From the NCBI GenBank assembly GCA_002788805.1, contig PFRZ01000009.1:1464-65463 (forward strand): DNA of 64,000 nucleotides, written 5' to 3'. The notes beneath the pieces are model-generated. The model was not told where the DNA came from, ran no database searches, and saw only the letters and a program-made list of their open reading frames with translations. The position numbers and the translations under genes are program-made. This document shows, piece by piece, positions 2,972 through 60,260 of the stretch; position 1 is the stretch's first letter, and every line of letters starts with the position of its first letter. This DNA is from Candidatus Roizmanbacteria bacterium CG_4_9_14_0_2_um_filter_35_15 (lineage in GTDB: Bacteria; Patescibacteriota; Microgenomatia; UBA1406; GWC2-37-13).

Positions 2972-3056
2972 AGTCTATAAAGTTTATAAAGTCTTTAAAG
3001 TTTATAAAGTACTTTTCTTTATAGACTTTACGACTTTATGACTTTACGAACTCTTT
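2972..3056. repeat. Palindromic array of the 9-nt unit ATAAAGTNN (family A) between two minus-strand genes
   Basis: agtctataaagtttataaagtctttaaagtttataaagt / loop / ctttatagactttacgactttatgactttacgaac. Confidence 0.8.
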
Positions 3057-4536
3057 AGACTTTCTCCGTTACTCTATATTTTAGCTTTTTTCCCAATAAA
3101 ATTCTAGTATGAGCATCAAGGGCGGGAAGCGAGGAAAAAAAGAAAGAAACAATCGGCAAAAAATACCATTGAACAATGAGCATCGGTAGATAAAAAAGGC
3201 TGGTTTTCTGATTCACTTTACGACGGATTTGAATGTCTAAGTAAATATAAAGAATTAAAAATATTGTCGACAAGGTCAAGATTAAAGCTGAGGCTTTTGG
3301 CAGAATAAATCCAAGAACAGTTTTTTTAAAAATAGGATTGATTAAAGGAGGGACAGACGCAGAAAGAGTGAGAATAAAAAAAGACACTGGCCAGAATAAA
3401 TGGGTCTCGGCGATAAATAATAATTTTTTTAGTTTCGTTACTAAGTCAATATTTGGACTGTCAAAAATTTTTTTTAAAAAATAACCGACGTCAGATACAC
3501 CCCAAGCCCAACGTTTTTCTTGCTCATAGCGATTAATAAATGTCTTAAAAACAGTTCCAGAAAAAACCGCGTCGCTATTAACAATAGTAAAAAGAGGCAT
3601 AGTTTTAACCTGGTTGCCGAACTTAAAGAACGCCTGGAAAAAAACATGCCAGTCTTCAGGAATGATATCGACGTCCCAAAAGTTAATTGATTTTAATAGC
3701 CAAAAATTAGTTGAGTAGGTAGAGACCTGAATAAGATTTTCTTTTTGAGAAAGAAAAGCCATGCGCAAAATCGAAGAAAGAGTGGCTTGAATCCTAACAA
3801 AAAGAGGTAGTTTCCAGAAATTGTTATAAAGAAGAACTGGCGCCCAATAAAAATGATAAAGTCGATTTTTATCTCTAAGAAATTCAAAAGTGAGATAGGA
3901 GAAGTAATTCTTAGGAAGAGAACTATCAGCATCACAGATAGTTACTAAAGACAGTTTATCAGATAAGTTATTTTTCTTTAGGCACTGGTCAATGATTTTT
4001 GCGGCATAAGTTTGATTACTAGCTTTACCCGGCTCCTCATTGTCTTCAAGTGTATGATAGGTAATCAATATCTCTTTAAAGAATCTTTGGAATTTATTTT
4101 TTAAAAAAATTCCTTTTTCTCTTGCTTCTTTTTCTCTTTCCTCAAAAGCGAGAATTAAAAATATTTTCTTTTTTCTTGGATAGTTATTGTTAACTAGCGT
4201 TTTTATGGTTGACTGAAGCATATGGAGCGGTTCTTGATAGTTAGGAATAATAACGAAGTGATTAATGGCAGAAATTTTTTTATTTTTATTTATTTTTTTT
4301 TGATAATTGATTTTTTGATGATACTCTATTTCCTTAAAGGATAAAACCGCTGAGTAGGCAGTAATAATTGATTTATAAAAAAAATAAAGATCAAAGGCGA
4401 TGATAAAATAGGCGACGATTGCCGGATGAAAAGGCGAAAGCCAGAGTGGAAATGTGATTAAAATCCATGAACCAATCGGGACAACAATTTCCAGCAGTCT
4501 TTGAAAAAGTCTCGACCCAATAATCCGTTTTGTCAT
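3055..4536 (-). CDS. Membrane-embedded processive family-2 glycosyltransferase (cellulose/chitin synthase-like)
   Basis: N- and C-terminal TM segments, VIIPNYQEP, ICDADS, and the Q(Q/R)xRW-type motif EQEKRWAWG. Confidence 0.7.
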   Translation of the reverse strand: MTKRIIGSRLFQRLLEIVVPIGSWILITFPLWLSPFHPAIVAYFIIAFDLYFFYKSIITAYSAVLSFKEIEYHQKINYQKKINKNKKISAINHFVIIPNYQEPLHMLQSTIKTLVNNNYPRKKKIFLILAFEEREKEAREKGIFLKNKFQRFFKEILITYHTLEDNEEPGKASNQTYAAKIIDQCLKKNNLSDKLSLVTICDADSSLPKNYFSYLTFEFLRDKNRLYHFYWAPVLLYNNFWKLPLFVRIQATLSSILRMAFLSQKENLIQVSTYSTNFWLLKSINFWDVDIIPEDWHVFFQAFFKFGNQVKTMPLFTIVNSDAVFSGTVFKTFINRYEQEKRWAWGVSDVGYFLKKIFDSPNIDLVTKLKKLLFIAETHLFWPVSFFILTLSASVPPLINPIFKKTVLGFILPKASALILTLSTIFLILYIYLDIQIRRKVNQKTSLFYLPMLIVQWYFLPIVSFFFSSLPALDAHTRILLGKKLKYRVTEKV

Positions 4537-4576: not shown

Positions 4577-4593
4577 CTCACGCCGGGGGTGAG
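4577..4593 (+). repeat. GC-rich REP-like motif, copy 1 (CTCACGCCGGGGGTGAG)
   Basis: The shared core CAC(G/T)CCGGGGGTGAG(G/T)T occurs three times within 1.6 kb of AT-rich DNA. This copy contributes ..NSPPA and the stop codon of the GT2 gene. Confidence 0.7.
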
Positions 4594-5309: not shown

Positions 5310-5327
5310 CCTCACCCCCGGAGTGAT
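5310..5327 (-). repeat. GC-rich REP-like motif, copy 2 (reverse complement: TCACTCCGGGGGTGAGG)
   Basis: Same core as 4577-4593 and 6144-6161, in the opposite orientation. Confidence 0.7.
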
Positions 5328-5336
5328 GGATAGGCT

Positions 5337-6014
5337 TTACCAACGATCTATATGCTTAATATGTTCTAATGATTTTTGATAATCAGCGTTATCAAATACA
5401 AATTTTTTGTAGCGAAGTTTATCGTTATTAAAAAGGCCTAATATAAAATCTGGATTGCTCAGTTTTTGAGAACTATTTGGAAAATATTCTTTAAAAGATG
5501 ACCACGGGTAGTTTTCTAATTTATCTATACTTTTAATTAATCCGTCAGAATAAGGATTGAGATGAATGTAACGAGATACATGTTTTAACTGTTCCTCGCT
5601 TTTTATTAACACGGCTTTAAATCTAGGAAGAAATATGGGTCCCTTTCTTTCGAATTTTATATTGAAATATCTCGTAAAGGAATTTAAAGTATCACCAATA
5701 AATTTACTAATACCATTTTCGCTTAATTGTTTTAAGAGAAAATGAAAATGCGTTTGCATTAAACAGTAACTTAAAATTTCTACTTTAAAATAAGCCGAAA
5801 TAAGAATTTCTTTTAAGATTAAGTTTTTGTTTATGTCTATTAGTCTTTTATAGTCAGAAAATCTTAATCGAGCTTTTAATGATCGATAATATCGAGATAT
5901 CTCCAAAAACGTGGAAGGCAAATGATTATTAGTAAATATTTGTTTTGACTCTATAGTTTTATTAAAAACATGATAATATTCTCCGTTGATAAAATTTATT
6001 CTTCTTTTCGGCAT
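5337..6014 (-). CDS. IS200-like Y1 HUH transposase, REP-associated tyrosine transposase (RAYT)-like
   Basis: HUH motif in LMQTHFHFLL, catalytic Tyr context VSRYIHLNP, downstream YPWSSF, N-terminal GEYYHVFNK. At 225 aa it is longer than an IS200 TnpA. Confidence 0.8.
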   Translation of the reverse strand: MPKRRINFINGEYYHVFNKTIESKQIFTNNHLPSTFLEISRYYRSLKARLRFSDYKRLIDINKNLILKEILISAYFKVEILSYCLMQTHFHFLLKQLSENGISKFIGDTLNSFTRYFNIKFERKGPIFLPRFKAVLIKSEEQLKHVSRYIHLNPYSDGLIKSIDKLENYPWSSFKEYFPNSSQKLSNPDFILGLFNNDKLRYKKFVFDNADYQKSLEHIKHIDRW

Positions 6015-6143
6015 ATATAGAAGTATTTTGAAGGCTTTATTTATTTTTGTCTATAGACTATATGCTACAAAATATATATTTTAGATTGTTAATACAAGAT
6101 TATTTTATCAATATACTATCATTCATACCGGGAATGAGAGAAT

Positions 6144-6161
6144 CGCACGCCGGGGGTGAGG
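6144..6161 (+). repeat. GC-rich REP-like motif, copy 3 (CGCACGCCGGGGGTGAGG)
   Basis: Same core. It lies between the helicase stop and the RAYT-like gene. Confidence 0.7.
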
Positions 6162-6167
6162 TTTGGA

Positions 6168-9101
6168 TTACTGCCAGGCTTCGCAGATGATTTTATATGG
6201 ACAGAAATCACACCAACGACCGACTTTGGGATTAAAACCATTGGTTCTTATTTGAGCGATGACTTTTTCAATATCAGCCTTAGCCGATTTTAAATCCTCG
6301 CTGGTTTTCGTGAGAGAAACTTTTTCCATTGCTTGAAGATAATAAAAAGTCAGTTTCACCTGATCAAGTTTTTTCTTATATAGACCTTTGTCAGTGGCCG
6401 CTAAAGCATAAATGGTTAGTTGCCAATCTTTTTTCAGTTTTTTTCCCTCTGGTTTTTTCCCGGTTTTATAATCGATAATTTCAATTTGATTATTTGCTAA
6501 ACGGTCAACTCGATCAATTTTTCCAGTCAGATAGATATCGTTGGTCAGTTTGATTTTAAAGAGCTTTTCCAAATCAATCGTGACAACACTTTTTTTATGG
6601 AATTTTTCTAAATAAGTTTTCAGAATTGTTTCCCCTTCTTTTTTCATTCTTATCTCATGAGATGAGGAAACATAGCCCAAAGGAATCCAGTTCTGCTGAT
6701 AAATCTCTAAAATTTCTTTAGCGCCAATATTTTTATTTTGGAGAAATTCTTGATAAAACTTTTGTAATGTTTTATGAATAGTATTACCAAAAGAAAGAGC
6801 GGCTGAAGGCGTGGTTGGCACCCGTAAAAGATACTGATATTTATATTGAAGCGGACAAAGCTGGTAACTTTGCAGTTGACTATAAGAAAAATTAGAGAGA
6901 ATAAACTTATTTTTGACGATTCTTTCCGGAACTTTTTTATAATCAAAAATTGACAGCTGTTGTTTTTCCTCTTTTTTTAAAGAGGCAACTTTTTTTATCA
7001 TTTCTTCGCCTACGGCTTCGTTGACAAAAGGAGAAAGTTTCTGTTCTCTTTTTCCTTCTCCATAAAACTTAGATGCCGTAAAGAAAGCTTTATCTTTAGC
7101 CCTAGTTATTCCTACATAAAAAAGCCGCCTTTCTTCTTCTTGGTGATAATCGCCTTCTGGCAAAATTTCTTTTATTAAAGGCTGAGGAATAGGAATTATC
7201 TCTCTTTTTTCATAGGTGGGAAAGCGGCCACGGGTTAGATTAACAAGAAAAACCAGCGGAAACTCCAGGCCTTTCGAAGAATGAACTGTTAAAAGGTTGA
7301 CAGCATTATATGAGCTAATATCGGTTTGGCTGACAATCGGCGATTCACCCAGTTCAAGACTCATATCAAGATAGTCAACTACAGCAAAAACCGAAGCATC
7401 CTCGTGTTCTGACTCATAAGCCTTCAGTTTGTTAAAAAATTTTGAGATGTTGAGAGCGATTTTTTCTTCTCGTTCGCTCTTGTAGTTAACCAGTTTGGGA
7501 AGATATTGGGAGTCTTCAAGAAAATAAAAGAGGATTTGACCGGCAGTTTCTTTTTTGATTAAAGATAGATGGCGGACAATCATCTTGAAAATTAACGATA
7601 ATTTTTTTCTTGTTTCTTGTTTGAGAAAAGGCAGATAATTTTTATAGATCGAAAAATCAGTTTGATAATAGTCCTTTTCATAAAAACTAAGATAAATTTC
7701 CATTGACTTAAAAAGAGATAGATTAGTTCTTTTACCAAAAGATAGTAAAAAACTTAGATCTTTTTCATCTAAAGAAAAGATATTCATTGCTAAAACGCGG
7801 TATAAAGAAGTCGAGTCTTCAAGATCAGCGAGAGTTTTAAGATAGGCAATTAAGTCTTTAACCTCTGGTTGTTTTAAAAGCATGCCCGGCCCCAAAAACT
7901 GATAAGGAATACCTTTTCTGGCGAAACTTCTGATAAATGGCTCGGAGTGAGCATTGGCACGGGTGAGGATAGCGAAGTCGGAAAATCGATAGAATTTAGA
8001 TAGCTTTAAAATTTCGTTAGCGACGTAGTCAGCCTCTTCTTCGACAGATTGAGATAGATAGAGAGTTATTGGTGATTGGTTACTAGTTATTAGTGACTGG
8101 TTATTGGCGATGAGCTTTTTAGAAATTCCCAGTTTGGCTTCCAGAGTGTCTGGGTCATTGTGTTTAATCAGTCGGTAGGCGGTGTCAAGAATTAGTTGAT
8201 TGGAACGATAGTTTTTTAATAGGGTAATCTGTTTGGCTTGGGAATAGTCTTTCATAAAGGTCAAAATATTGGAGACCGAGGCGCCACGGAATTTGTAGAT
8301 CGCTTGGGAATCATCTCCGACAACAGTAAGGAAAGGATTCTTTTTTGGGAGACAGAGCAGTTTGATTAGTTCGTATTGAGCAATATTAGTATCTTGAAAT
8401 TCGTCAATTAAAACATAGTGGAACTGTTGCCGGTATTTTTTTAAGAGATTGTTTCTTGTTCTAAAAAGCTTGAGTAGATAATAAATCAGATCAGAGAAAT
8501 CCATCAGTCCTTCTTTTTCTTTTAGTGTTTGATATCTGTGGTAGGCTTTTGCCAGCTCTACATTTTTTTCTAACTCGGTTTTATCTTCTTCATTTTTGAT
8601 TTTTGATTTTTGATTTTTAATATATTTATCGTATTCTTCCGGCGACACATCCTCATCTTTAATTCTTGAGAAATGCTGTAAAAGACTAGCTAAAAATTTA
8701 TTGGGATTACCTAAGGGACGGAAGTAGTTTAGATCAAAGAGAAATAAGTTCTGCCGAAGAAAGATAATTGTCTCTGCTTCGGTCATCAGACGGAAACCGG
8801 AGTTAAGGCCAATATGATGAACTTCTTGCTTAAGGACATCATTAGCAAAAGAATGAAAGGTAGAAATCCACATCTGAAAATAGCCATAGGGTATCGCTTT
8901 ATCAACTCTTTTCTCCATTTCTGATGCTGCTTTTTCTGTAAAAGTGAGAGCAAGAATTTCTTCGGGCCTAGCAAGGTTTTTTTGAATTAAGTATTTGATT
9001 TTTTCAGTAATGACAGTGGTTTTTCCCGTGCCTGCTCCGGCAACAATCAGAAGCGGTCCTTGATTATATTCCACCGCCTGTTTTTGTTCGTTATTTAACA
9101 T
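6168..9101 (-). CDS. UvrD/Rep-family helicase fused to a C-terminal RecB/Cas4-like PD-(D/E)XK nuclease with a Cys cluster
   Basis: AGAGTGKTT, VLIDEFQDTN, VGDDSQAIYKFRGA, VHSSKGLEF, YVGITRAK. The C-terminus has CPLQYKY .. IDYKTGK .. CDFCPYKIIC. Confidence 0.8.
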   Translation of the reverse strand: MLNNEQKQAVEYNQGPLLIVAGAGTGKTTVITEKIKYLIQKNLARPEEILALTFTEKAASEMEKRVDKAIPYGYFQMWISTFHSFANDVLKQEVHHIGLNSGFRLMTEAETIIFLRQNLFLFDLNYFRPLGNPNKFLASLLQHFSRIKDEDVSPEEYDKYIKNQKSKIKNEEDKTELEKNVELAKAYHRYQTLKEKEGLMDFSDLIYYLLKLFRTRNNLLKKYRQQFHYVLIDEFQDTNIAQYELIKLLCLPKKNPFLTVVGDDSQAIYKFRGASVSNILTFMKDYSQAKQITLLKNYRSNQLILDTAYRLIKHNDPDTLEAKLGISKKLIANNQSLITSNQSPITLYLSQSVEEEADYVANEILKLSKFYRFSDFAILTRANAHSEPFIRSFARKGIPYQFLGPGMLLKQPEVKDLIAYLKTLADLEDSTSLYRVLAMNIFSLDEKDLSFLLSFGKRTNLSLFKSMEIYLSFYEKDYYQTDFSIYKNYLPFLKQETRKKLSLIFKMIVRHLSLIKKETAGQILFYFLEDSQYLPKLVNYKSEREEKIALNISKFFNKLKAYESEHEDASVFAVVDYLDMSLELGESPIVSQTDISSYNAVNLLTVHSSKGLEFPLVFLVNLTRGRFPTYEKREIIPIPQPLIKEILPEGDYHQEEERRLFYVGITRAKDKAFFTASKFYGEGKREQKLSPFVNEAVGEEMIKKVASLKKEEKQQLSIFDYKKVPERIVKNKFILSNFSYSQLQSYQLCPLQYKYQYLLRVPTTPSAALSFGNTIHKTLQKFYQEFLQNKNIGAKEILEIYQQNWIPLGYVSSSHEIRMKKEGETILKTYLEKFHKKSVVTIDLEKLFKIKLTNDIYLTGKIDRVDRLANNQIEIIDYKTGKKPEGKKLKKDWQLTIYALAATDKGLYKKKLDQVKLTFYYLQAMEKVSLTKTSEDLKSAKADIEKVIAQIRTNGFNPKVGRWCDFCPYKIICEAWQ
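8065..8108. repeat. 8-nt-period array inside the helicase ORF (gttattgg tgattggt tactagtt attagtga ctggttat)
   Basis: Read directly. It encodes NNQSLITSNQSPITL on the minus strand. Confidence 0.6.
8592..8623. repeat. Tandem ATTTTTGA octamers inside the helicase ORF
   Basis: atttttgatttttgatttttgatttttaat encodes IKNQKSKIKNEE on the minus strand. Confidence 0.7.
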
Positions 9102-9251: not shown

Positions 9252-10436
9252 ATGGCACAAGGTGTATTTCAGAGGAATAAACCTCATTTAAATATTGGAA
9301 CAATTGGTCATGTAGACCACGGAAAAACCACTTTAACTTCGGCGATTCATTATGTTCTTTCCAAAAAAGGTCAAGCACAGTTTTTAAAGTATGAAGATAT
9401 TGATAAAGCTCCAGAGGAAAGAGCTAGAGGCGTTACCATTAATCTTCACCACAGCGAATACGAAACCGATAAGCGTCATTACGCTCACATTGACGCTCCA
9501 GGACATGCTGACTATATTAAAAACATGATTACTGGAGCAGCCCAGATGGATGGAGCGATTTTAGTCGTTTCTGCGCCAGATGGACCGATGCCGCAAACCA
9601 GAGAGCATATTCTTTTAGCTCGTCAGGTTAATGTACCGGCCATTATTGTCTTTTTAAATAAAACTGACATGGTGGCTGATAAAGAAATTCTTGATCTGGT
9701 TGAGATGGAGGTTCGCGATCTGTTAACGAAATATAAATTTCCTGGAGACAAAATTCCGGTGATTCGCGGATCAGCTCTTAAAGCATTAGCTGATGATCCA
9801 GAAGCAATTAAGTCGATTGAAGAACTAATTGCCAAAGTTGACGAATATATTCCAGAGCCGGTCAGACCAGTTGACAAACCGTTCTTAATGCCCATTGAAG
9901 ACGTTTTCACTATTTCCGGTCGAGGAACTGTGGTTACCGGAAGAGTAGAAAGAGGAATCTGCAAGATTAACGATGAGGTGGAAATTGTGGGTATTAAAGA
10001 AACGAAAAAAACCGTCGTCACCGGAGTGGAGATGTTTAGAAAAACTCTTGATGAGGCGAGAGCAGGGGACAATGTTGGTCTACTTTTAAGAGGAGTGGAA
10101 AAAGACGATGTTTTAAGAGGTCAAGTAGTGGCCAAACCAGGCTCAATTACTCCTCATACTGAATTTGAGGCGGAGATCTATGTCTTAACTAAAGAAGAAG
10201 GTGGTCGTCATACTCCTTTTTTCAAAGGCTATCGACCACAGTTCTATATCAAAACCACCGATATTACCGGTGAAGTTCAGTTGCCGGCGGGAGTGGAAAT
10301 GGTTATGCCAGGAGACAATATTAAGATTACCGCTAAACTAATCTATCCGGTGGCAATGGAAGAGGGACTAAAGTTCGCTATTCGTGAGGGTGGCCATACG
10401 GTCGGAGCAGGAGTAGTGATTAAAATCATTAAATGA
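9252..10436 (+). CDS. tuf: Elongation factor Tu
   Basis: [28 protein letters not shown]; full-length at 394 aa. Confidence 0.97.
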
Positions 10437-10505
10437 TTCCAATCTACGAATGAATTCGAATCAACTAATATTTGTAGATTAGTATAAATTAGTAGATTAG
10501 AATCT
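10436..10505 (+). repeat. 70-nt dispersed repeat, family C, copy 1
   Basis: attccaatctacgaatgaattcgaatcaactaatatttgtagattagtataaattagtagattagaatct. Its reverse complement recurs at 27689-27758. Confidence 0.85.
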
Positions 10506-10521
10506 TAATTTGCACCTTAAT

Positions 10522-10970: not shown

Positions 10971-11669
10971 ATGACAGGATTTATTTTAGGAGAAAAATCA
11001 GAACAGTCACAGACTTTTAATGATAAAGGAGAGAGAATTCCAACGACTTTTATTAAGACGACTAACTGTTATCTTCTTGATATCACTACTCCTCAAAAAA
11101 GAGGCTATTTTGCTGTTAAACTTGGATTTGGTCAGAGCAAAAACATCAAAAAACCAGTTCAAGGAGAGTTAACAAAAGCGGGGATAAAAACCCCGCTTCG
11201 TTTTTTGAAAGAAATTCGTTTGGACTTTCCTGTTACCCGAAAGAAGAGTTTAAAAGACAAGGTAAAGTTAATTGAAGAAGACGGTAAAAAAGGGCTTTCA
11301 ATAAAAGAAGTAAAAATCTTTGTTGGTGAGCCTTTAAAAACCGCCGCTCTTTTTAAAAAAGGGGATCAAATAGCTGTTTCTGGGATTTCTAAAGGAAAAG
11401 GTTTTCAAGGAGTGGTGAAGCGTCATCACTTTAAAGGTGGACCGAGAACTCATGGTCAATCTCATAGCGAGAGGGCGCCGGGATCAGTGGGAATGACAAC
11501 AACGCCGGGCCGAATCTTTAAAGGTAAAAGAATGGCTGGTCGGATGGGAGGGGAAAGAGTCACTATTAAATATTTACAAGTAGTCGAAGTAAAAGAAGAA
11601 GGATTATTAATTAAGGGATTAGTTCCTGGCTATAGGGGAGCTTTATTAGAAGTGATAGCCGAACAATAA
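10971..11669 (+). CDS. rplC: 50S ribosomal protein L3
   Basis: MTGFILGEKSEQSQTF.., FKGGPRTHGQSHSERAPGSVG. The start was set at an internal Met. Confidence 0.95.
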   Translation: MTGFILGEKSEQSQTFNDKGERIPTTFIKTTNCYLLDITTPQKRGYFAVKLGFGQSKNIKKPVQGELTKAGIKTPLRFLKEIRLDFPVTRKKSLKDKVKLIEEDGKKGLSIKEVKIFVGEPLKTAALFKKGDQIAVSGISKGKGFQGVVKRHHFKGGPRTHGQSHSERAPGSVGMTTTPGRIFKGKRMAGRMGGERVTIKYLQVVEVKEEGLLIKGLVPGYRGALLEVIAEQ

Positions 11670-13414: not shown

Positions 13415-13822
13415 ATGGAATCAAAAACCTATCTAAAAAATTTAAAAATTTCACCTAAAAAATTGAGGTTTTTATTACCGGCAGTGAAAAAAATGAAACC
13501 GGCTAAATCTTTGGACTACCTGTTTTATACAAACAATAAACCAGCTAAAGTACTGTATCAAGTAATAAAGTCAGCGATATCTAACGCAAAAACTCTCTTA
13601 AAAGTCAGTGATGATATGTTAAACTTTAAGCTTTTAACAGTAGAAGAAGGACAAAAACTAAAGAGATCTCGACCAGGCGGAAGAGGCACTGCAAAACCAA
13701 TAATAAAAAGAATGAGCCATATTAAAATAGTACTTGAAGCATCAGAAATTCCAAATTCTAAGCACCAAATTACAAATAAATCCCAAATTCAAAATTCTAA
13801 ATCCAAAACAAAAAAAATTTAG
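13415..13822 (+). CDS. rplV: 50S ribosomal protein L22 with a repeat-encoded C-terminal tail
   Basis: LKISPKKLRFLLPAVKKM.. core. The last ~25 aa (SEIPNSKHQITNKSQIQNSKSKTKKI) are encoded by the repeat at 13746-13806. Confidence 0.9.
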   Translation: MESKTYLKNLKISPKKLRFLLPAVKKMKPAKSLDYLFYTNNKPAKVLYQVIKSAISNAKTLLKVSDDMLNFKLLTVEEGQKLKRSRPGGRGTAKPIIKRMSHIKIVLEASEIPNSKHQITNKSQIQNSKSKTKKI

Positions 13823-13866
13823 TATTTAGAGTTTATTTGGGATTTGGAATTTAGTATTTAGAATTT
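13746..13866. repeat. Imperfect palindrome of 8-nt-period AAAT-core units centred near the rplV stop codon
   Basis: The left arm ccaaattc taagcacc aaattaca aataaatc ccaaattc aaaattct pairs against the right arm tatttaga gtttattt gggatttg gaatttag tatttaga. Confidence 0.7.
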
Positions 13867-13875
13867 ATAAAAAAT

Positions 13876-14511
13876 ATGGGACAAAAAGTTAATCCAAATG
13901 GTCTACGACTAGGCGTGATCCGCAACTGGAATTCGCGCTGGTTCTTCTCTGATAAAAAAGCTTACCGAAAAGCTCTAGAATCTGATATTAAAATCAGAAA
14001 TTTATTAATGGATAAGTTATCCTTTGCTTCGGTTACCCAGATTGATATTGAACGGGCAATTAATAAAATCACTGTTATTATCTATTCGGTTAAGCCAGGG
14101 ATGATTATTGGTCGAGGAGGAAAAGGCCTTGAGGAGATAAAAAACCAATTGAGTAAATTTTTTAAAATAAAGAAAGCTAAAGAAATGAAGATAGATCTGA
14201 AAATAGAACCGGTTAAAAAACCATATCTTAATGCTTATTATGTTGCCCAATCAATCGCCGAAAAGTTGGTAAAAGGATTTACTCATCGGTCAGTAGTTCA
14301 TCGGACGATGACTCGAGTGATTGAAGAAGGTGCCAAAGGAATAAAAGTTCAGTTAGGAGGAAGAATAGCTGGAGCAGAAATCTCCAGGCGGGAAAAGTAT
14401 TTTCAAGGAACTATTCCTACATCTACTATAAGAGAAGATATTGATTACGCTAATTATCCGGCCTTAACAAGATCAGGATATATTGGGGTTAAGATTTGGA
14501 TATGTAAATAG
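13876..14511 (+). CDS. rpsC: 30S ribosomal protein S3
   Basis: MGQKVNPNGLRLGVIRNWNSRWF. Confidence 0.95.
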   Translation: MGQKVNPNGLRLGVIRNWNSRWFFSDKKAYRKALESDIKIRNLLMDKLSFASVTQIDIERAINKITVIIYSVKPGMIIGRGGKGLEEIKNQLSKFFKIKKAKEMKIDLKIEPVKKPYLNAYYVAQSIAEKLVKGFTHRSVVHRTMTRVIEEGAKGIKVQLGGRIAGAEISRREKYFQGTIPTSTIREDIDYANYPALTRSGYIGVKIWICK

Positions 14512-15135: not shown

Positions 15136-15394
15136 AGTTGTCTCAAACAAAATGCTAAAAACAGTTGTTGTTATGGTGGAGAGAAAGTTTCGCTATCCTT
15201 TATATAAGAAAGTAATTACCAGACACAAAAAATATCAAGTACATAATGAGGATTTACAGCTAAATGTAGGCGATATAGTTAGAATTAGCGAAACGAAGCC
15301 AATATCGAAAAACAAGCATTTTATTGTTATTGAGAAGATAAATGACAAATCTCAAATAACAAATAACAAATCAAGTTCAAATGTCAAAAAATAA
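15113..15394 (+). CDS. rpsQ: 30S ribosomal protein S17 with a repeat-encoded C-terminal tail
   Basis: GKVVSNKMLKTVVVMVERKFRYPLYKK. The tail DKSQITNNKSSSNVKK is encoded by the repeat left arm. Confidence 0.9.
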   Translation: MKKILIGKVVSNKMLKTVVVMVERKFRYPLYKKVITRHKKYQVHNEDLQLNVGDIVRISETKPISKNKHFIVIEKINDKSQITNNKSSSNVKK

Positions 15395-15457
15395 ATTTTT
15401 AAACATTTGATATTAAAAATTTGTTATTGATTTGAAATTTGAAATTTGTCATTTGAA
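15340..15457. repeat. Family B palindromic 8-nt-period element centred on the rpsQ stop codon
   Basis: tcaaatgt..(TAA)..acatttga forms the inner stem. The right arm aaacatttgatattaaaaatttgttattgatttgaaatttgaaatttgtcatttgaa is nearly identical to 30205-30263. Confidence 0.8.
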
Positions 15458-15474: not shown

Positions 15475-15849
15475 ATGTTGCAAACAAGGTCGATCTTAAA
15501 TGTCGCTGATAACACCGGCGCCAAAAAAGTATCAATGATTGGTATGCCAGCCAAAGGTAATCGAAGATATGCTTATATCAGCGATGCGATCACTATTTCC
15601 GTCAAAGAGGCGATTCCTTTTGCTCAAGTCAAAAAGGGCGAGGTGCTGCCGGCGGTTGTTGTTAGAACAAAGAAAGAAAAAAAAAGAAAAGACGGCAGTT
15701 ATATACGTTTTGATGACAACGCCTGTGTTATTTTAGCCGGTAAAGGGATGAAGGATCCTAAAGGGACAAGAGTATTTGGCCCGATTGCTAAAGAAATAAA
15801 AGATAATGGTTTTGCCAAAATTGCTAGTTTAGCAGAGGAAATATATTAG
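15475..15849 (+). CDS. rplN: 50S ribosomal protein L14
   Basis: MLQTRSILNVADNTGAKK. Confidence 0.96.
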   Translation: MLQTRSILNVADNTGAKKVSMIGMPAKGNRRYAYISDAITISVKEAIPFAQVKKGEVLPAVVVRTKKEKKRKDGSYIRFDDNACVILAGKGMKDPKGTRVFGPIAKEIKDNGFAKIASLAEEIY

Positions 15850-15884
15850 TTTTTAAAGTTATAAAGTTCATAAAGTTTATAAAG
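15850..15884 (+). repeat. Family A array (ATAAAGTTN, 9-nt period) filling the rplN-rplX spacer
   Basis: tttttaaagtt ataaagttc ataaagttt ataaagaaATG. Confidence 0.85.
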
Positions 15885-16194: not shown

Positions 16195-16222
16195 CAATAT
16201 AACAATTTAACAATATAACAAT
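16195..16222 (+). repeat. Octamer array CAATATAA/CAATTTAA directly upstream of the rplE start
   Basis: gcaatataacaatttaacaatataacaatATG. Confidence 0.6.
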
Positions 16223-16765
16223 ATGAATTTCAAGGACTATTACAATCAGGAGGTTAAGAAGAAATTGATGACCGATGTTAAGATAGCTAATATAATAGCA
16301 GTTCCAAAAATCGTCAAAATCGTCATTAATGTCGGTGCTGGTGAAGCGGTCACTAACAAAGGAGCGATAGATAAAATTAAAGACCAGTTGGCGACGATTA
16401 CCGGTCAACGTCCGGTAGTCACCAAGGCGAGAGTTTCTATATCAGCTTTTAAAATAAGAAAAGGATTGCCTATTGGTGTTAAGGTTACTCTTCGAGGAAA
16501 AAAGATGTTTGATTTTCTTGAGAAGTTAATAAAGATTGTCATTCCCGGAGTTCGAGATTTTAAAGGTATTTCCGAAAAAAACCTTGATCAACATGGAAAT
16601 TTAAATCTTGGTTTTTCTGAACAGACGATTTTTCCCGAGATAGACTTTGACAAAATTGATAAAATAAGAGGCTTAGAGGTAACAGTTGTTACTAATGCGA
16701 GGAGTCAAGTGTATGGTAAAAAGTTATTTGAGTTATTGGGAATACCATTTAGAAAAAGTTTATAA
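16223..16765 (+). CDS. rplE: 50S ribosomal protein L5
   Basis: VPKIVKIVINVGAGEA, RGLEVTVVT. Confidence 0.95.
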   Translation: MNFKDYYNQEVKKKLMTDVKIANIIAVPKIVKIVINVGAGEAVTNKGAIDKIKDQLATITGQRPVVTKARVSISAFKIRKGLPIGVKVTLRGKKMFDFLEKLIKIVIPGVRDFKGISEKNLDQHGNLNLGFSEQTIFPEIDFDKIDKIRGLEVTVVTNARSQVYGKKLFELLGIPFRKSL

Positions 16766-16792
16766 AGTTATAAAGTTTATAAAGTCATAAAG
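16757..16792 (+). repeat. Family A array spanning the rplE stop and reaching the rpsN ATG
   Basis: aagtttataaagttataaagtttataaagtcataaagATG. Confidence 0.85.
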
Positions 16793-16984: not shown

Positions 16985-17269
16985 ATGGCAAGATCAGTAA
17001 AAAAAGGTCCTTATATCGATGAAAATTTGTTGAAAAAGGTTCTTAAACAAAAAGAAAACAAAAATAATGAGCCGATCAAAACTTGGGCGCGTAATTCGCA
17101 GATCGCTCCGGAATTTGTTGGTCATCGAATGGCTATTCATAATGGTCGAAAATTTATTGAAGTTTATATTTCCGAATCGATGGTTGGTCATCGGTTAGGC
17201 GAGTTTGCTCCTACTCGTACTTTTAGAAGTCACGGTAAGGTGACTAAAAAGGTAATGGAAGCAACTTAA
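16985..17269 (+). CDS. rpsS: 30S ribosomal protein S19 (in a non-canonical position between S14 and S8)
   Basis: [47 protein letters not shown]. Confidence 0.95.
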
Positions 17270-17667: not shown

Positions 17668-18225
17668 ATGTCAAAAATTGGAACAAAAGTCATCAATTGG
17701 CCATCTCAAATTAAAATTGAGATTGAAGGAAAAAAAGTGACAATCAAAGGATCAGCTGGTGAGATGACAGTTACTCTCCCTGAATCACTTTCTATCCTAC
17801 AGAAAGAAAGCAGTCTGGTTCTCCAAAGAACCAGCGAAGAAAAAAAGATAAAATCCCTTCATGGTTTGTATCGTCAGTTGATAAATAATGCTGTTATTGG
17901 AGTAGAAAAACCATGGGAAAAACAGTTGGAGATAGTAGGAACGGGTTACAATGTTAAACTTCAAGGCGAAGATCTAGTTTTTAAAGTGGGATATATTCAT
18001 CCGGTTGTTTTCAAAAAACCAGCAGGAGTGAAATTTCAAACAGAAGGAAATAATAAAATTAAAGTTATCGGAGTAGATAAACAACTAGTCGGCCAGGTGG
18101 CTTTTCAGATAAAAATGATAAAAAAACCTGATGTTTATAAAGGCAAAGGAATTAAGTATTTGGGTGAAAAATTAAGAATTAAGCCGGGAAAAAAAGCAAA
18201 AGCCGCCGGACCGGTAACTCAATAA
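17668..18225 (+). CDS. rplF: 50S ribosomal protein L6
   Basis: MSKIGTKVINWPSQIKIEIEGKKVTIKG. The start was set at an internal Met after the rpsH stop. Confidence 0.93.
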   Translation: MSKIGTKVINWPSQIKIEIEGKKVTIKGSAGEMTVTLPESLSILQKESSLVLQRTSEEKKIKSLHGLYRQLINNAVIGVEKPWEKQLEIVGTGYNVKLQGEDLVFKVGYIHPVVFKKPAGVKFQTEGNNKIKVIGVDKQLVGQVAFQIKMIKKPDVYKGKGIKYLGEKLRIKPGKKAKAAGPVTQ

Positions 18226-25886: not shown

Positions 25887-26317
25887 CAGGATTAACTTTA
25901 TCAACAAAACCGATAAGAGAAAGAAATATTAAGAGACAGTGGCACTTAATTGATGTTTCAGGAAAGATTTTAGGAAGAATTACGCCGCAGATTGCCAGAT
26001 TATTACAAGGTAAACATAAATCTAATTATTCTTCTTCTCTTGATGTGGGGGATTATGTCGTTGTTGTTAATGCCGGCAAGGTGATTGTTTCTGGAAAGAA
26101 GAAGAAAACAAAGATTTACACCTATTATTCTGGTTATCCTGGTGGATTAAGAAAAGAGTATTTTAGTAAGTTGATTGAACAAAATCCAGGGAAGATTGTT
26201 AAGAATGCTGTCTCGGGCATGTTGCCGAAAAATAAATTAAGAGATATGAGATTAAAACGATTATATATTTTTGCTGATGATAATCATCCTTATAAAGAAA
26301 AGTTTATAAAGTTATAA
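25883..26317 (+). CDS. rplM: 50S ribosomal protein L13
   Basis: RQWHLIDVSGKILGRI, YYSGYPGGL, VSGMLPKNKL. Confidence 0.93.
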   Translation: MTGLTLSTKPIRERNIKRQWHLIDVSGKILGRITPQIARLLQGKHKSNYSSSLDVGDYVVVVNAGKVIVSGKKKKTKIYTYYSGYPGGLRKEYFSKLIEQNPGKIVKNAVSGMLPKNKLRDMRLKRLYIFADDNHPYKEKFIKL

Positions 26318-26338
26318 AGTTCATAAAGTTCATAAAGT
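26290..26338 (+). repeat. Family A array spanning the rplM 3' end and stop and reaching the rpsI ATG
   Basis: ttataaagaaaagtttataaagttataaagttcataaagttcataaagtATG. Confidence 0.85.
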
Positions 26339-26812: not shown

Positions 26813-27697
26813 ATGAAATTTTTGTCAATTATTATTGTTTCTTTCAACACGAGGCTAATCACTTTAAAATGCCTTCGTCATCTAAAAAATAACTTTAAAA
26901 AATATCCACTAGATTATGAAATCATTATAGTTGACAATGGTTCTATTGATGGGAGCATCCAGATGCTTAAGGAAGAACAAAAAAATTGGACAAATCTACA
27001 ACTAATTCTTTCCAAAAAAAACCTCGGTTATGGTAAAGCCAATAATCTTGGTGTTCAGAAAAGCAAAGGACAGTATGTCTTATACTTAAATTCTGACGCA
27101 ATCATAAACGATATCGATTTCCGCGATTTAGTCAATATTTTTGAAGCCCAGCCACAGATAGGCGCTCTGACAGTAAAAGTAGTCCTTAAAAATGGAGAAA
27201 TTGATCCAGCCTCTCATCGGGGTTTTCCGACTTTATGGTGGTCTTTTTGCTATTTTATTGGTTTAGAGAAGTTATTTTATCGAACTTTTCTATTAAACAA
27301 ACTTTTTGGGGGTTACCATTTAACTAATAGAAATCTTTCAACTGTCCACGAGATTGATGCCGGAACCGGTGCTTTTTTTCTGACGAAAAAAGAGATTATT
27401 GACCGCATTGGTGGTTTTGACAAGGATTATTTTGCCTATGGAGAAGATATCGAAATGGCTTATCGGATAAAAGAACTCGGCTATAAAATCCTTTATTATC
27501 CGCTTTGGCAGGTGCTACATCTTAAATACTCCTCTGGCTTAAAGAAAAATGATAAAAAAACCAGAGAGATGACAAGATTTCATTTTTACCAGGCAATGAA
27601 GATTTTTTATACTAAACACTACGCTAAAAAAAATTTTTGGTTGGTTAATCAATTAGTTTATCTGGCGATTGATTTAAAAAGTAATTTAAGATTCTAA
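26813..27697 (+). CDS. Family-2 glycosyltransferase
   Basis: LSIIIVSFNT, IIVDNGSIDGS, YLNSDA, GAFFL..., EDIEMAYR. Confidence 0.8.
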   Translation: MKFLSIIIVSFNTRLITLKCLRHLKNNFKKYPLDYEIIIVDNGSIDGSIQMLKEEQKNWTNLQLILSKKNLGYGKANNLGVQKSKGQYVLYLNSDAIINDIDFRDLVNIFEAQPQIGALTVKVVLKNGEIDPASHRGFPTLWWSFCYFIGLEKLFYRTFLLNKLFGGYHLTNRNLSTVHEIDAGTGAFFLTKKEIIDRIGGFDKDYFAYGEDIEMAYRIKELGYKILYYPLWQVLHLKYSSGLKKNDKKTREMTRFHFYQAMKIFYTKHYAKKNFWLVNQLVYLAIDLKSNLRF

Positions 27698-27758
27698 TCT
27701 ACTAATTTATGCTAATCAACGAATATTGGTTGATTAGAATTCATTCGTAGATTGGTAT
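27689..27758 (-). repeat. 70-nt dispersed repeat, family C, copy 2 (inverted relative to 10436-10505)
   Basis: The reverse complement aligns to copy 1 with about 6 mismatches by hand alignment. It supplies the last residues and the stop codon of the GT2 gene. Confidence 0.85.
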
Positions 27759-27774
27759 TATTTATTGGTTATTT

Positions 27775-29032: not shown

Positions 29033-30193
29033 ATGTTTAAAAAGAAAAAGATTGCCATTGTTTATGACTGGATTGATAAATGGGGCGGGGTAGAGAGGGT
29101 ATTGTTGACTCTTCATGAGATGTTTCCAGAGGCGACTTTTTATACTTCCTATTTTGATTCTGAGAAAGCATCATGGGCCAGAGATTTAAGAATAGAAACT
29201 TCATTTATTCAACGTCTTCCCAAGATAATAAGAGGACGAAGAATTGTCTCCCTCCCTCTTTATCCATATGCTTTTGAGTCTTTTAATTTTAATAAATTTG
29301 ATTTGGTGATTTCGGTTACCTCATCATTTGCGAAGTCAATAATTACTCAACCGAGAACCAAACATATCTGTTATCTTCTAACGCCGACAAGATATCTTTG
29401 GAGTCATCAAAAGGACTACTTTAAAAAGAATATTGTCAATAGTTATTATTTGGAAAAATTAAAGGATTGGGATTTTATTACCGCTCAAAGGCCGGATAAG
29501 ATAATTTCGATTTCGGAAACAGTTAAAAATCGTTGTAATAAATACTATCATCGAAAAAGTGAAGTCATTTATCCGCCGTTTGATATTGAATACTGGAAGA
29601 AAATCTCAAATCTCAAATCTCAAATGTCAAATCTAAATCTTAAATCTAAAAACTATTTTTTGATAGTTTCAAGACTAGAGCCATATAAGAAAATAGATTT
29701 AGCAGTTAAAGTTTTTAATAGGTTAAAAGATAATCTAATTATTGTGGGAGAAGGAAGCGAAGAAAATAATTTAAGAAGAATTTCAGGAAAAAATATTATC
29801 TTTCTTTCAAAATTAACCGATCAGGATTTGGCGTTGTTATATTCGAACGCTGAAGCCCTAATCATGCCTCAAGAAGAAGATTTTGGATTAGTGTCACTTG
29901 AGGCGCAGTTTTTCGGCTGTCCGATGATTTCTTACAAAAAGGGAGGAGCGTTAGAAACTGTAACAGAGGGAAAGACGGGAATTTTTTTTAAGGAGCAATC
30001 AGAAATATCATTGGGGCGGGCGGTTGAAAAATTTAACAGGATTAAGTACAATTTGAAGATAAGTACGGTAAAATTTGGGTTAAAGAATTTAGAGAGATTT
30101 GATAGAGTATTTTTTGAAAAAAAGTTTATTAGTAGTATTGAAAATGTCAAATCACAAATGACAAATAACAAATCAATTTCAAATATCAAATGA
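29033..30193 (+). CDS. Family-4 (GT-B) glycosyltransferase carrying an internal and a C-terminal repeat-encoded segment
   Basis: IMPQEEDFGLVSLEAQFFGCPMISY. Repeat-derived KISNLKSQMSNLNLKSK and tail VKSQMTNNKSISNIK. Confidence 0.8.
   Translation: MFKKKKIAIVYDWIDKWGGVERVLLTLHEMFPEATFYTSYFDSEKASWARDLRIETSFIQRLPKIIRGRRIVSLPLYPYAFESFNFNKFDLVISVTSSFAKSIITQPRTKHICYLLTPTRYLWSHQKDYFKKNIVNSYYLEKLKDWDFITAQRPDKIISISETVKNRCNKYYHRKSEVIYPPFDIEYWKKISNLKSQMSNLNLKSKNYFLIVSRLEPYKKIDLAVKVFNRLKDNLIIVGEGSEENNLRRISGKNIIFLSKLTDQDLALLYSNAEALIMPQEEDFGLVSLEAQFFGCPMISYKKGGALETVTEGKTGIFFKEQSEISLGRAVEKFNRIKYNLKISTVKFGLKNLERFDRVFFEKKFISSIENVKSQMTNNKSISNIK
29601..29650 (+). repeat. Six tandem AAATCTCA-type octamers in-frame inside the GT4 ORF
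   Basis: aaatctca aatctcaa atctcaaa tgtcaaat ctaaatct taaatcta. Confidence 0.8.
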
Positions 30194-30263
30194 ATAAATG
30201 TTTTAAACATTTGATGTTTATCATTTGTTATTGATTTGAAATTTGAGCTTTGTCATTTGAAAT
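30140..30263. repeat. Family B palindromic 8-nt-period element centred on the GT4 stop codon
   Basis: The left arm is translated. The right arm aaacatttgatgtttatcatttgttattgatttgaaatttgagctttgtcatttgaa matches 15402-15457. Confidence 0.8.
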
Positions 30264-30269
30264 TATTCT

Positions 30270-37260: not shown

Positions 37261-37716
37261 ATGAAAATCAATAAGAATGTTCTGATTATTGGTGCGGTCT
37301 TGTTAGTTTTATTAGCTATTGGTTATTGGTTATTGGGAAGAAAAAATATTCCCAAAAATAATCAAGAAACAATTTCTCCAACCGAAATTGTCCTTCCAAC
37401 GATAGACAGTTCGGTCAAGGTCGATTTACAGTCGGTTTCTGGTGGTAAAGACGTGACATTATCGATCAACAATATTCCTTCTGGAACTGACTCGGTTGAC
37501 TATGAACTTTCTTATCAGACCGCTCAACAAGGTATCCAAGGAGTAATCGGGACAATTGACGTTTCCAATCAAAGCGATTACGAGAAAAAAATTACTTTAG
37601 GAACCTGTTCATCAGGTACCTGTGTCTATCATCAGGTAGTGGGAAAGATAAAATTGACTCTTAAATTTACTGGAGATTATGGAGAAAAGTTATTTGAGAA
37701 AGAATACGAACTATAA
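37261..37716 (+). CDS. Hypothetical secreted or membrane-anchored protein
   Basis: N-terminal signal/TM helix (VLIIGAVLLVLLAIGYWLL). No recognisable family. Confidence 0.55.
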   Translation: MKINKNVLIIGAVLLVLLAIGYWLLGRKNIPKNNQETISPTEIVLPTIDSSVKVDLQSVSGGKDVTLSINNIPSGTDSVDYELSYQTAQQGIQGVIGTIDVSNQSDYEKKITLGTCSSGTCVYHQVVGKIKLTLKFTGDYGEKLFEKEYEL

Positions 37717-37750
37717 ATTTTTGATATTTAATATTTAATCTTTAATATTT
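37717..37750 (+). repeat. Family D 8-nt-period repeat (tttttgatatttaatatttaatctttaatattt)
   Basis: A near-identical inverted copy lies at 60227-60260. Confidence 0.7.
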
Positions 37751-37774
37751 ACAAAGGGGGTGCGTTAGCATACT

Positions 37775-41696: not shown

Positions 41697-42758
41697 CTGG
41701 TCGCAGTTTTCTTTATTTTCTAAAACACAACCAATATATCGATGGATTAAAGAGAAATTTTTGTCGGTGGGAATAAGAACCCAAAGGCCGTCATATTCTG
41801 GAGAATTGACTTCAGGATTAGTGAAAAAATCTTGATCGAGAACAATTTTTTCTTGTTTTATTTTTCCTTTAAAGACAATGTTTTTTAAAATAATGGCGAT
41901 TTGTTGATTGGTGATATCACGTTTTACCAAGGGATTAATCAGTTGATAAAGCTGTCGGTAGGTTTTTAGACTGAGTTTTTTAACCGAAGCAAAGAGTTTA
42001 TTTTTTACCGTCTCAATCACTTTTTGTTGCCGAGCTTCTCGAGCGAAGTCGGTTCCTTCTTTGCCTTCAGCGTTTCTTGATCTAACGAATTTAAGAGCGG
42101 TTTCGCCGTTCATTTTATTTAGTCCTTTGGTGAAAGTAATAGTCTCATAGCGACAGGCGTAGGTTTTATCTCCAGCACAGTCATCGTTCTCACGGCCGGC
42201 GATGGGAAATTTTTTATCAGTAAAAGAGTTGTCAATATTGATTTCCACTCCGCCAAGAAAATCAATCAGTTCTTTGAATTTATCAAAGTCAATTACTACG
42301 GCGTATTGAATTGGAAGACCGATAATAGCGGAAACCTCAGCTTTAGCTAAGATAAAACCGCCGCCATTTTTTTTCGCTTCACCATAAGCGTAAGCAGAAT
42401 TAATCTTATCTTTTAAAGTATCGCTCCAAATGTCTCGAGGAATGGAAATAGTTGTTGATTGATTAGTTTTAAGATCATAGTTGATAACGACGATTGAGTC
42501 AGATAAATTCGGTCCTTCATGTTGACCGCCGGCGACTCCTAACAAGAGAATATTCACTTGATTATCGTAGCTTTTTAAAGAGTTTCTTGATAAGAGAGTC
42601 TTGACTATTGATACCTTGAGAGTTTTATTAATAAAAAGAAAATAAGGACGAATAATAAAAATAGAGATCAATAAAATAAAGGAACAAGCAATAATAATTT
42701 TCAATTTAAAATTTTCAATTTTCATTGAATTTTCAATTTTAAAAGACTTAATTTTCAA
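41667..42758 (-). CDS. LytR-CpsA-Psr (LCP) family protein; true start possibly at 42725
   Basis: ILLLGVAGGQHEGPNLSDSIVVINYD, FVRSRN. The first ~20 codons lie in an octamer array. Confidence 0.85.
   Translation of the reverse strand: MKIKSFKIENSMKIENFKLKIIIACSFILLISIFIIRPYFLFINKTLKVSIVKTLLSRNSLKSYDNQVNILLLGVAGGQHEGPNLSDSIVVINYDLKTNQSTTISIPRDIWSDTLKDKINSAYAYGEAKKNGGGFILAKAEVSAIIGLPIQYAVVIDFDKFKELIDFLGGVEINIDNSFTDKKFPIAGRENDDCAGDKTYACRYETITFTKGLNKMNGETALKFVRSRNAEGKEGTDFAREARQQKVIETVKNKLFASVKKLSLKTYRQLYQLINPLVKRDITNQQIAIILKNIVFKGKIKQEKIVLDQDFFTNPEVNSPEYDGLWVLIPTDKNFSLIHRYIGCVLENKENCDQLKNKSSNNQ
42697..42758. repeat. AATTTTCA octamer array overlapping the annotated 5' end of the LCP gene
   Basis: aattttcaatttaaaattttcaattttcattgaattttcaattttaaaagacttaattttcaa. 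Confidence 0.7.
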
Positions 42759-52805: not shown

Positions 52806-52844
52806 AGTTTATAAAGTTCATAAAGTCTATAAAGTTTATAAAGT
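52806..52844. repeat. Family A array between the convergent PBP and serS genes, providing the serS stop codon
   Basis: agtttataaagttcataaagtctataaagtttataaagtag. Confidence 0.85.
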
Positions 52845-60226: not shown

Positions 60227-60260
60227 AAATATTAAATATTAAAAATCAAATATCAAAAAT
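60227..60260 (-). repeat. Family D repeat, inverted copy, overlapping the lysJ/argD stop codon
   Basis: aaatattaaatattaaaaatcaaatatcaaaaat is approximately the reverse complement of 37717-37750. Confidence 0.7.

Follow-up and report, generated by a model that had tools for sequence, protein, structure and literature searches.

Three genes in a 64,000-nucleotide stretch of Candidatus Roizmanbacteria bacterium CG_4_9_14_0_2_um_filter_35_15 (contig PFRZ01000009.1; the whole stretch is called the window below) end inside imperfect palindromes of short, A/T-rich tandem units. This raises the question of how such palindromes came to lie across stop codons, and to be partly translated, in genes as different as those for the ribosomal proteins S17 and L22 and a GT4 glycosyltransferase. 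The host belongs to a lineage of the Candidate Phyla Radiation (CPR)/Microgenomates from the Crystal Geyser ("CG") metagenomes. The palindromes, here named E1, E2, and E3, are probably copies, E3 a more distant one, of a small non-coding dispersed repeat made of heptamer arrays and resembling transposable elements of the miniature inverted-repeat type (MITEs), hairpin-forming doublets of repetitive extragenic palindromic sequences (REPINs) and Rickettsia palindromic elements (RPEs). In the window they occupy the following positions:

15340-15457, plus strand: E1, imperfect palindrome of about 118 nt (nhmmer E = 3e-26).
30142-30266, plus strand: E2, imperfect palindrome of about 125 nt (nhmmer E = 1e-33).
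13746-13871, plus strand: E3, distant member with AAATTCN/AAATCCN units (nhmmer E = 2.6e-6).

The first arms of E1, E2, and E3 are in frame with the upstream genes for S17, GT4, and L22, respectively, which bears out the first-pass annotation of this DNA in reading the left arm as a protein tail. The first arm of E1 (15340-15391) encodes residues 78-93 of S17 (tail DKSQITNNKSSSNVKK); the stop codon TAA (15392-15394) lies in the loop, and the second arm, from about 15403 to 15457, is followed by a run of eight T (T8) and by the start of rplN at 15475. In E2, the first arm encodes the last ~15 amino acids of the GT4 glycosyltransferase (tail VKSQMTNNKSISNIK), the stop codon TGA (30191-30193) stands 10 nt ahead of the palindrome centre, and the second arm ends 3 nt short of the ATG (30270) of an NTP-transferase gene. 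The first arm of E3 forms the C-terminal tail of L22, with the stop codon TAG (13820-13822) just beyond the loop; its second arm extends to 13867, and rpsC starts at 13876. The claim that the palindromes at the rpsQ and GT4 stops are homologous was confirmed: an alignment of E1 with E2 covers 120 nt, with 88.3% identity and two gaps of 1 nt. The sequences flanking the two, S17/L14 and GT4/NTP-transferase, are unrelated. E3 shows a global identity of 61-66% to the other members, near the ceiling of 63% obtained with shuffled sequences.

The arms are modular, but the modules are heptamers and not the octamers described in the first-pass annotation. The repeat unit is CAAATNN (for example CAAATCT), and Tandem Repeats Finder (TRF) returned period 7 for every array listed in that annotation except the one at 16195. 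In the window, AAAT repeated at least three times at 7-nt spacing was observed 9 times, with 0.5 expected and no more than 3 in any of 50 shuffles, while 8-nt spacing was not enriched over shuffles (1 observed, 0.3 expected). The pattern (CAAATNN)3CAAAT with up to two mismatches was observed 11 times against 0.01 expected, so the arrays do exceed what composition-matched chance would give. In a window-wide autocorrelation, codon periodicity alone was visible, since the arrays make up too little of the window for a 7-nt signal to emerge. Among the peptides of the GT4 inter-domain linker in 96 distinct homologues, periodicity peaked at lag 7 (0.22) and dipped at lag 8 (0.06). TRF, the spacing counts and these peptide lags together ruled out an 8-nt periodicity of the arrays. 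With a 7-nt unit, the super-period is therefore 21 nt or 7 amino acids, in place of the 24 nt or 8 amino acids assumed before, and the frame is kept only in steps of three units. The whole element measures about 118-126 nt; each arm holds six or seven heptamers around a short A/T loop, and the heptamer order is conserved across six copies.

Copies of the palindrome are present at other loci and in other genomes. Metagenome contigs of the Joint Genome Institute (JGI) were scanned with a 22-nt core common to E1 and E2, which gave five real copies and three chance matches; a profile built from six copies (alignment A4) was then used with nhmmer on those loci and found more. The copies outside the window are given here under our contig names:

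L142, 238-361 (L142a, the same as L143): fills the ~131-nt spacer of the divergent genes rsmI and dedA; 98.4% identical to E2 over 124 nt.
L142, 5944-6050 (L142b), 5.6 kb along the same contig from L142a: behind a 957-aa UvrA-like gene, next ATG at 6053; E1-like second arm.
L140, 2010-2135: in the spacer that separates glyA from a divergent gene for a small membrane protein, the copy stopping at the ATG of that gene; another Roizmanbacteria, 94% identical to E2.
L151, 4133-4255: GT4/NTP-transferase junction, as for E2, in a Roizmanbacteria with a GT4 66% identical.
L141, 5057-5178: between rpsK and rpsD, 70 nt past the S11 stop codon; low-GC contig.
L144, 596-705, 4013-4134, and 4878-5016: at least three palindromic copies on a 6.5-kb low-GC contig.
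L144, 3254-3336: solo arm adjoining tRNA-Ile.

L142 comes from the species of the window, as its DedA exactly matches proteins of the same CG metagenome-assembled genomes. At least four copies at 76-98% identity are thus found in one species, and more in other Roizmanbacteria. Pairwise identity is 85-98% within the core of E1, E2, L142a, and L140, and 70-78% between this core and L142b, L151, L141, and L144a. For L144b and E3 it falls to 61-69%, close to the shuffle ceiling, and their membership therefore rests mainly on the profile E-values (1.6e-9 and 2.6e-6, respectively). With a dispersed E1/E2 subfamily and enriched arrays, the family of periodic-array palindromes postulated in the first-pass annotation does exist. 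Viral contigs yielded no member, whether probed with the family core or with the left-arm consensus, and no sign of a phage vector was seen there.

At the orthologous junctions of relatives, the palindromes are missing. The S17/L14 spacer is only 1-5 nt long in L132, L147, L148, and L149, and in L133 it measures 43 nt and holds an unrelated 9-mer array; the E1 site is thus empty in 5 of the 5 relatives examined. In L134, the closest GT4 relative (76% identity), the GT4 and NTP-transferase genes overlap by 4 nt (ATGA). Relative to these genomes, E1 and E2 are therefore insertions. The window S17 has 93 amino acids including a 16-aa tail, while most S17 relatives have 76-80; 113 of the 120 closest homologues measure 75-82 amino acids without an extension, and the tail is confined to the window species. 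Among the GT4 homologues, 49 of the 79 that could be scored have the canonical end length. The 6-kb stretch carrying the feature recurs in at least seven independent assemblies (99.9% identical, 0 indels) and is therefore not an assembly artefact. The window GT4 protein is 100% identical to one from Roizmanbacteria bacterium CG22_combo_CG10-13_8_21_14_all, and the S17 protein matches CG_4_10_14_0_8_um_filter_35_28.

The position of the stop codons can be read from the composition of the element and of the genome. In the E1/E2 subfamily, exactly one of the three first-arm frames is open, with the consensus tail N[IV]KSQ[MI]TNNKSxSN[IV]K; a TAA or TGA in the loop (nt 49-53) closes it. In each of the two remaining frames a stop is reached within 1-8 codons, and no frame stays open across the T-rich second arm. 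The simpler idea of a first arm free of stops in all frames was therefore wrong for this subfamily. The same frame is open, again ending in the loop, in L142a and L140, which lie untranslated between divergent genes. Since the element is a palindrome, its A-rich arm comes first in either orientation. The window has a GC content of 34% and tightly packed genes, for the most part on the plus strand, many of which overlap or are 1-40 nt apart. With spacers of 0-40 nt an element between genes therefore touches stop and start codons, and in seven copies (E1, E2, E3, L142a, L142b, L140, and L144b) 0-17 nt separate the end of the second arm from the start codon that follows. The near-central stop is a consequence of composition and genome compaction, largely a by-product, and not general. 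A stop at or near the palindrome centre, which the first-pass annotation had made the hallmark of the family, was indeed found in E1, E2, and E3. As a defining property it did not hold: L142a and L140 are untranslated, the L141 element lies well past the S11 stop, and in L142b the UvrA-like reading frame enters the element by 6 codons and stops within the third heptamer.

We propose that the element spreads by a copy-and-insert process. Between genes so closely spaced, a surviving copy abuts the stop codon of the gene upstream or takes its place; where the insertion falls at this stop or immediately ahead of it, the protein gains a few to about 17 low-complexity residues and a new stop. On this reading, the tails are tolerated by-products. 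The 7-nt arrays appear to form and turn over readily, probably via replication slippage, and template switching within the quasi-palindrome may keep both arms similar. In a polycistronic mRNA the AU-rich hairpin may incidentally affect processing, decay or read-through, yet a function is unnecessary to explain the data. The heptamer palindrome behaves like a small selfish repeat, and not like a demonstrated regulatory device. Other small palindromic intergenic repeats occur in the window besides the heptamer elements, so that the genome evidently tolerates them.

A number of observations weigh against a mobile selfish repeat. No target-site duplication and no shared target motif were seen by eye in 9 copies, with boundaries uncertain by a few nt; the left flanks differ between copies (TTGA, AGAT, TATT, AAGA, ACAA, TATAA, TTGAC), and the ATTGA to the left of E1, E2, and L151 is due to Ile-Glu codons of the host genes. 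No transposase was linked to the element. Insertion polymorphism was absent from seven assemblies of the population (99.9% identical, no indels), and recent activity is therefore inferred only from the pair with 98.4% identity. Copy number looks modest, as no further copy was found in 18 kb outside the window (9 kb per end). A search with the 22-nt core in 185,579 species genomes gave only 5 chance matches in coding DNA of unrelated phyla, the source species apparently having no representative there. The junction that holds E2, after ...ATTGAA, also holds the L151 element, yet in the closest relative it is empty, which calls for a hot spot or a loss.

A further point of this kind concerns E3. 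Its first arm (window 13752-13801, L133 8648-8696) is 94-96% identical between the two species, while L22 overall is about 66% identical. In the 10-kb alignment with L133 across the ribosomal-protein operon, where median identity is 68% and the 99th percentile 88%, only one 50-nt stretch ranks above this arm (94%). Such conservation is not what a selfish element evolving neutrally should show. Tails related to that of the window L22 were found in a subclade (P0248, P0274, P0290). As for the second arm at L22, the window has it in full, L133 and L147 have part of it, and L148 and L149 lack it. Three causes could account for the conservation of the first arm: the tail is under selection, the sequence as such is, or there was a recent exchange.

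Of the other explanations, the one that survives best takes the palindromes for RNA elements with a role in polycistronic mRNAs, be it as terminators or attenuators, as hairpins for RNase processing or stabilisation, or as leaders that control translation of the downstream gene; their dispersal would then come from the recruitment of a useful module. We consider it unlikely. All copies fold far better than shuffles, and E1, E2, and E3 fold better than any of 200 dinucleotide shuffles (plus strand, z = -4.7 for E1 and -2.6 for E2; minus strand, -6.9 and -5.2; E3, z = -3.7). In the consensus fold, 5-bp CAAAT/ATTTG helices succeed one another in a ladder. The second arm stands close to the next start in the seven copies named above, the first arm of E3 is exceptionally conserved, and E1 with its T8 lies at the S17/L14 junction, which in E. 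coli is the boundary of the S10 and spc operons. A Shine-Dalgarno-like motif was found before only 6 of the 74 start codons in the window, the leaders being A/T-rich; a genome nearly without such motifs is also the setting in which translation regulation by TAACTGA repeats was proposed (PMC4679880).

The details of the hairpin speak less well for an RNA function. The variable NN between the helices are mostly unpaired, and covariation is essentially lacking: compensatory change was seen in 2 of 37 pairs and none in the remaining 35, and the covariation term was positive. In all three window copies the sense RNA folds 6-8 kcal/mol worse than the antisense RNA. A T-run follows E1 only, with none after E2 or E3. 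Rfam gave no match at gathering thresholds and, at permissive thresholds, only chance sub-threshold hairpin matches, while promoter and terminator scans of the window gave counts equal to shuffles and no site that accounts for the elements. An intrinsic terminator was rejected, as the stems are A/U-rich, T8 is present at E1 only, and no scan site falls at any element. Moreover, the E1 site is empty in five relatives and the E2 site in the closest one, and the L22 element has lost its second arm in L148 and L149 and is truncated in L133. The hairpin data give no support for a selected RNA structure, although the hairpin may have a modulatory effect.

We give less credence to the view that the K/S/N/Q-rich tails and linkers are themselves selected, for example for rRNA contacts or as flexible linkers, with the DNA palindrome incidental. 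K-rich C-terminal tails of 4-67 amino acids are nearly universal on L22 in Roizmanbacteria; the tail of the window L22 is kept in a second species at 26 of 30 amino acids (94-96% at the DNA level), and in L148 and L149 it persists despite the lost second arm. The L22 tails overall, however, show no 7-aa periodicity, so most are not array-derived, and the S17 tail occurs in this species only, with 113 of 120 homologues lacking an extension. The same tail frame is also present in untranslated copies, and selection on the protein leaves the second arm and the intergenic copies unaccounted for.

A further reading, equally speculative, is that the CAAAT/AUUUG cores at every 7 nt of both arms serve as a recognition array for a lineage-specific single-strand nucleic-acid-binding factor and, together with the 7- and 9-nt arrays directly upstream of starts in a genome with so few Shine-Dalgarno sites, make up a CPR-specific layer of post-transcriptional control. 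If so, new tails and linkers on essential proteins, ribosomal ones included, would arise as a side effect, and the near-invariance of the L22-tail arm would reflect the constraint of such a layer.

Least of all do we believe in an origin without mobility, by slippage-grown arrays and inverted duplication at each locus and convergence between loci: it accommodates the species-specific heptamer units at orthologous sites, the generic CAAATNN arrays that are common even in viral contigs (among the matches listed) and the established proposal of 7-nt slippage, but it is contradicted for the E1/E2 subfamily by 85-98% identity over about 120 nt, irregular segments and loop included, against a shuffle ceiling of 63%, and by the unit order shared by six copies, and could survive only for E3 and the solo arrays.

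Taking the palindromes as small dispersed repeats, we compared them with known systems. No description of the family was found in Rfam or in the literature searched on repeats of CPR, Patescibacteria or Roizmanbacteria, in line with the first-pass annotation, which did not recognise it either. The likeness to RPEs that had been drawn there is apt. In-frame fusions of MITE reading frames to host reading frames are common, and RPEs are the extreme case (PMC10969869): like the elements described here, they are palindromic repeats of ~100-150 nt in a reduced genome, with one conserved-peptide frame and tolerated fusions to unrelated genes (PMC10969869). Compared by description, the two differ in host phylum and in the heptamer-array arms. 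RPE insertions are internal and read through, whereas the fusions found here (S17, GT4, L22, and the UvrA-like gene) are all C-terminal and end with the element's own stop; about half of the copies are purely intergenic and untranslated.

REPINs share with the heptamer family the ~100-nt hairpin-forming inverted doublets, the intergenic location and the lack of target-site duplication, and the window also holds a Y1 transposase gene of the kind associated with them (see below). However, neither end of any copy bears a GTAG or CGTC tag, and the arms do not consist of GC-rich REPs of 20-40 nt; by definition, a REP is a unit of that length that ends in a conserved GTAG or CGTC (PMC3733652). With MITEs such as Correia/CREE, ERIC, Nezha and BOX/RUP, which can fuse to reading frames or alter expression (PMC10969869, PMC3184786), the elements have in common that they are small, AT-rich, non-coding, multi-copy, hairpin-forming and located in transcribed intergenic DNA. 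Their ends, AATRTCAAAT... and ...ATTTGAAATTAT, are inverted copies of each other, trivially so in a full palindrome. They differ from MITEs in consisting, end to end, of a palindrome built from short tandem units and not of unique sequence within terminal inverted repeats. In 9 copies inspected by eye, no target-site duplication was seen, and the window and the adjoining 18 kb yielded no parent insertion sequence (IS) that shares their ends. Derivation from IS200/IS605 as a palindrome-associated transposable element (PATE) was rejected, as the left flanks have no common 4-5-nt target and the element forms a single long hairpin instead of two subterminal end hairpins.

Heptanucleotide simple sequence repeats (SSRs) are over-represented in bacteria, and polymerase slippage has been proposed as the cause; one orientation can be translated, while every frame of the other contains stops (PMC4679880, PMC4692102). 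The cyanobacterial STRR, the Xanthomonas GGGAATC and the Beggiatoaceae TAACTGA repeats resemble the heptamer family in having over-represented 7-nt units, which are present head to tail here as well, near start or stop codons. The translatable orientation and the occasional inverted arrays able to form stem-loops are further likenesses (PMC4679880, PMC4692102). While these SSRs consist of a single heptamer with varying copy number, no unit-number variation was seen here in 7 assemblies of the population, which carry no indels; here a constant CAAAT core with variable NN in fixed order is copied to new loci as a ~120-nt block. The turnover of units at fixed sites between species supports slippage only indirectly. 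The heptamer family resembles RPEs, REPINs, and MITEs but seems to lack features specific to each, namely target-site duplications, the GTAG tag, cognate RAYT flanks, and internal fusions. What appears to be new are arms of heptamer arrays in fixed unit order, copied as a block; small palindromic dispersed repeats as such are a known kind.

To our knowledge, small selfish repeats have hardly been studied in the CPR, where streamlined genomes with little mobile DNA are assumed. The present genome, of the ~1-Mb class, tolerates several palindromic repeat families in its few intergenic bases, even within ribosomal-protein operons; S17, L22, and a glycosyltransferase have had their C-termini rewritten by one of them. 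As a case for study, this family bears on the movement of elements without an obvious transposase, on the persistence of in-frame 7-nt slippage arrays within essential genes, and on the origin of low-complexity tails. Such elements will shift stop-codon calls and inflate the number of "novel C-terminal extensions" in CPR protein catalogues.

The Y1 transposase gene mentioned above resembles a REP-associated tyrosine transposase (RAYT):

5337-6014, minus strand: RAYT-like Y1 transposase gene, 225 aa, IS200-like.

Its product scored 30.9 bits against Pfam Y1_Tnp (cut-off 23); the best NCBIfam match, REP_Tyr_transpos, reached 48.5 bits and stayed below the cut-off of 80, and the best PDB match was 4ER8 (E = 0.18). 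Neither L132 nor L133 has the gene at this locus. In the window, copies of the GC-rich palindrome CTCACCCCCGGCGTG flank it (4577-4593, 5311-5327, and 6144-6160); 8 matches to this palindrome were counted against 0.57 expected. Gene and repeats together look like a RAYT/REP-like system in a CPR genome. As the cognate of the heptamer elements the gene was rejected, since the repeats flanking it are this different palindrome; its link to the heptamer elements is only a lead.

Besides E1-E3, the window contains the following arrays of 7-nt units:

29601-29651, plus strand: solo heptamer array (AAATCTC)n, in frame in the GT4 inter-domain linker, ISNLKSQMSNLNLKSK (nhmmer E = 1.6e-3).
51561-51587, plus strand: solo array (AAATCTC)x3.9, in frame in a 704-aa transglycosylase/transpeptidase gene (Pfam); weak nhmmer match (E = 0.08).
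8592-8618, minus strand: solo array, AAAAATC x4 on the coding strand, in frame in a 977-aa UvrD/PD-(D/E)XK helicase-nuclease gene.
37716-37751, plus strand: T-rich heptamer array AATATTT x5, intergenic, from a gene stop (37716) to rpsT (37775).
60227-60261, minus strand: heptamer array AAATATT x5, intergenic, between two minus-strand genes.
42696-42757, no strand assigned: heptamer-type array of AATTTTC units in the divergent spacer of a LytR-family gene and a UvrD gene.

From the list of related arrays in the first-pass annotation, 13746 (E3), 29601 and, weakly, 51559 proved to be family members; the others are generic heptamer arrays, apart from the 8-mer at 16195. The arrays at 37716-37751 and 60227-60261 are 91% inverted copies of each other, in the same orientation relative to transcription. 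At two protein sites, arrays of different units were found in different species. The GT4 inter-domain linker, which has (AAATCTC)n in the window but (AAAGTCA)n in L134, is hypervariable across Roizmanbacteria homologues, with heptamer-array-like peptides among the 96 distinct sequences. In a loop of the UvrD/PD-(D/E)XK protein (about aa 161-178), the window carries AAAAATC x4, L133 AAGATCA x4 (2747-2776), and L132 AAATACG-type units (3570-3600), the site being conserved across three species while the unit turns over. Arrays of 7-nt units are thus a lineage trait at permissive protein sites.

In other Roizmanbacteria, a GC-rich, hairpin-like insert was observed at the GT4 linker and the L22 tail (P0015, P0064, P0265, P0275, P0312, P0340, and others). 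It encodes the recurrent peptides SPLRSSSFAGQ, FAKASxDKQ, and KPAFVKTSAGK (DNA at about 620-700 of L152) and may represent a second in-frame repeat family.

The array at 16195-16224, directly upstream of rplE, is the sole true 8-nt period on the list of the first-pass annotation (CAATATAA) and a repeat distinct from the heptamer family. A second copy of it lies 7.6 kb past the window end (L137 1629-1661; CAATATAA / ATAACAAT, x3.8-4.1). Another family has a 9-nt unit, TATAAAGTN, and was found in the window at 2972-3063, 15848-15884, 16755-16792, 26299-26338, and 52806-52844, in L132 at 17926-18012, and in L133 at 10226-10266. AAAG at 9-nt spacing was observed 5 times against 0.1 expected, and most 9-nt arrays stand directly upstream of start codons. 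Two of them form palindromes of ~90 nt from inverted arrays (window 2972-3063, z = -4.9; L132 17926-18012, z = -5.6).

An imperfect palindrome of ~95 nt without heptamers, with the core AATCTACGAATGAATTC...TTAGTAGATTAGAATC, occurs in the window at 10424-10520, in the tuf/rpsJ spacer, and at 27674-27770, behind a GT2 gene; the two are 86% identical and in opposite orientations. On L141, a contig with a member of the heptamer family, a near-perfect palindrome of ~110 nt with ATACAAG / ATCAAAC units was found at 11479-11570 (-46 kcal/mol).

No tRNA or tmRNA gene was detected in the 64-kb window. In its ribosomal-protein operon, the S19 gene (16985-17269) lies between S14 and S8 and not between L2 and L22, so that L22 directly follows L2. 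The same shift of S19 was seen in all Roizmanbacteria loci covering that part of the operon (L132, L133, and L001-L004).

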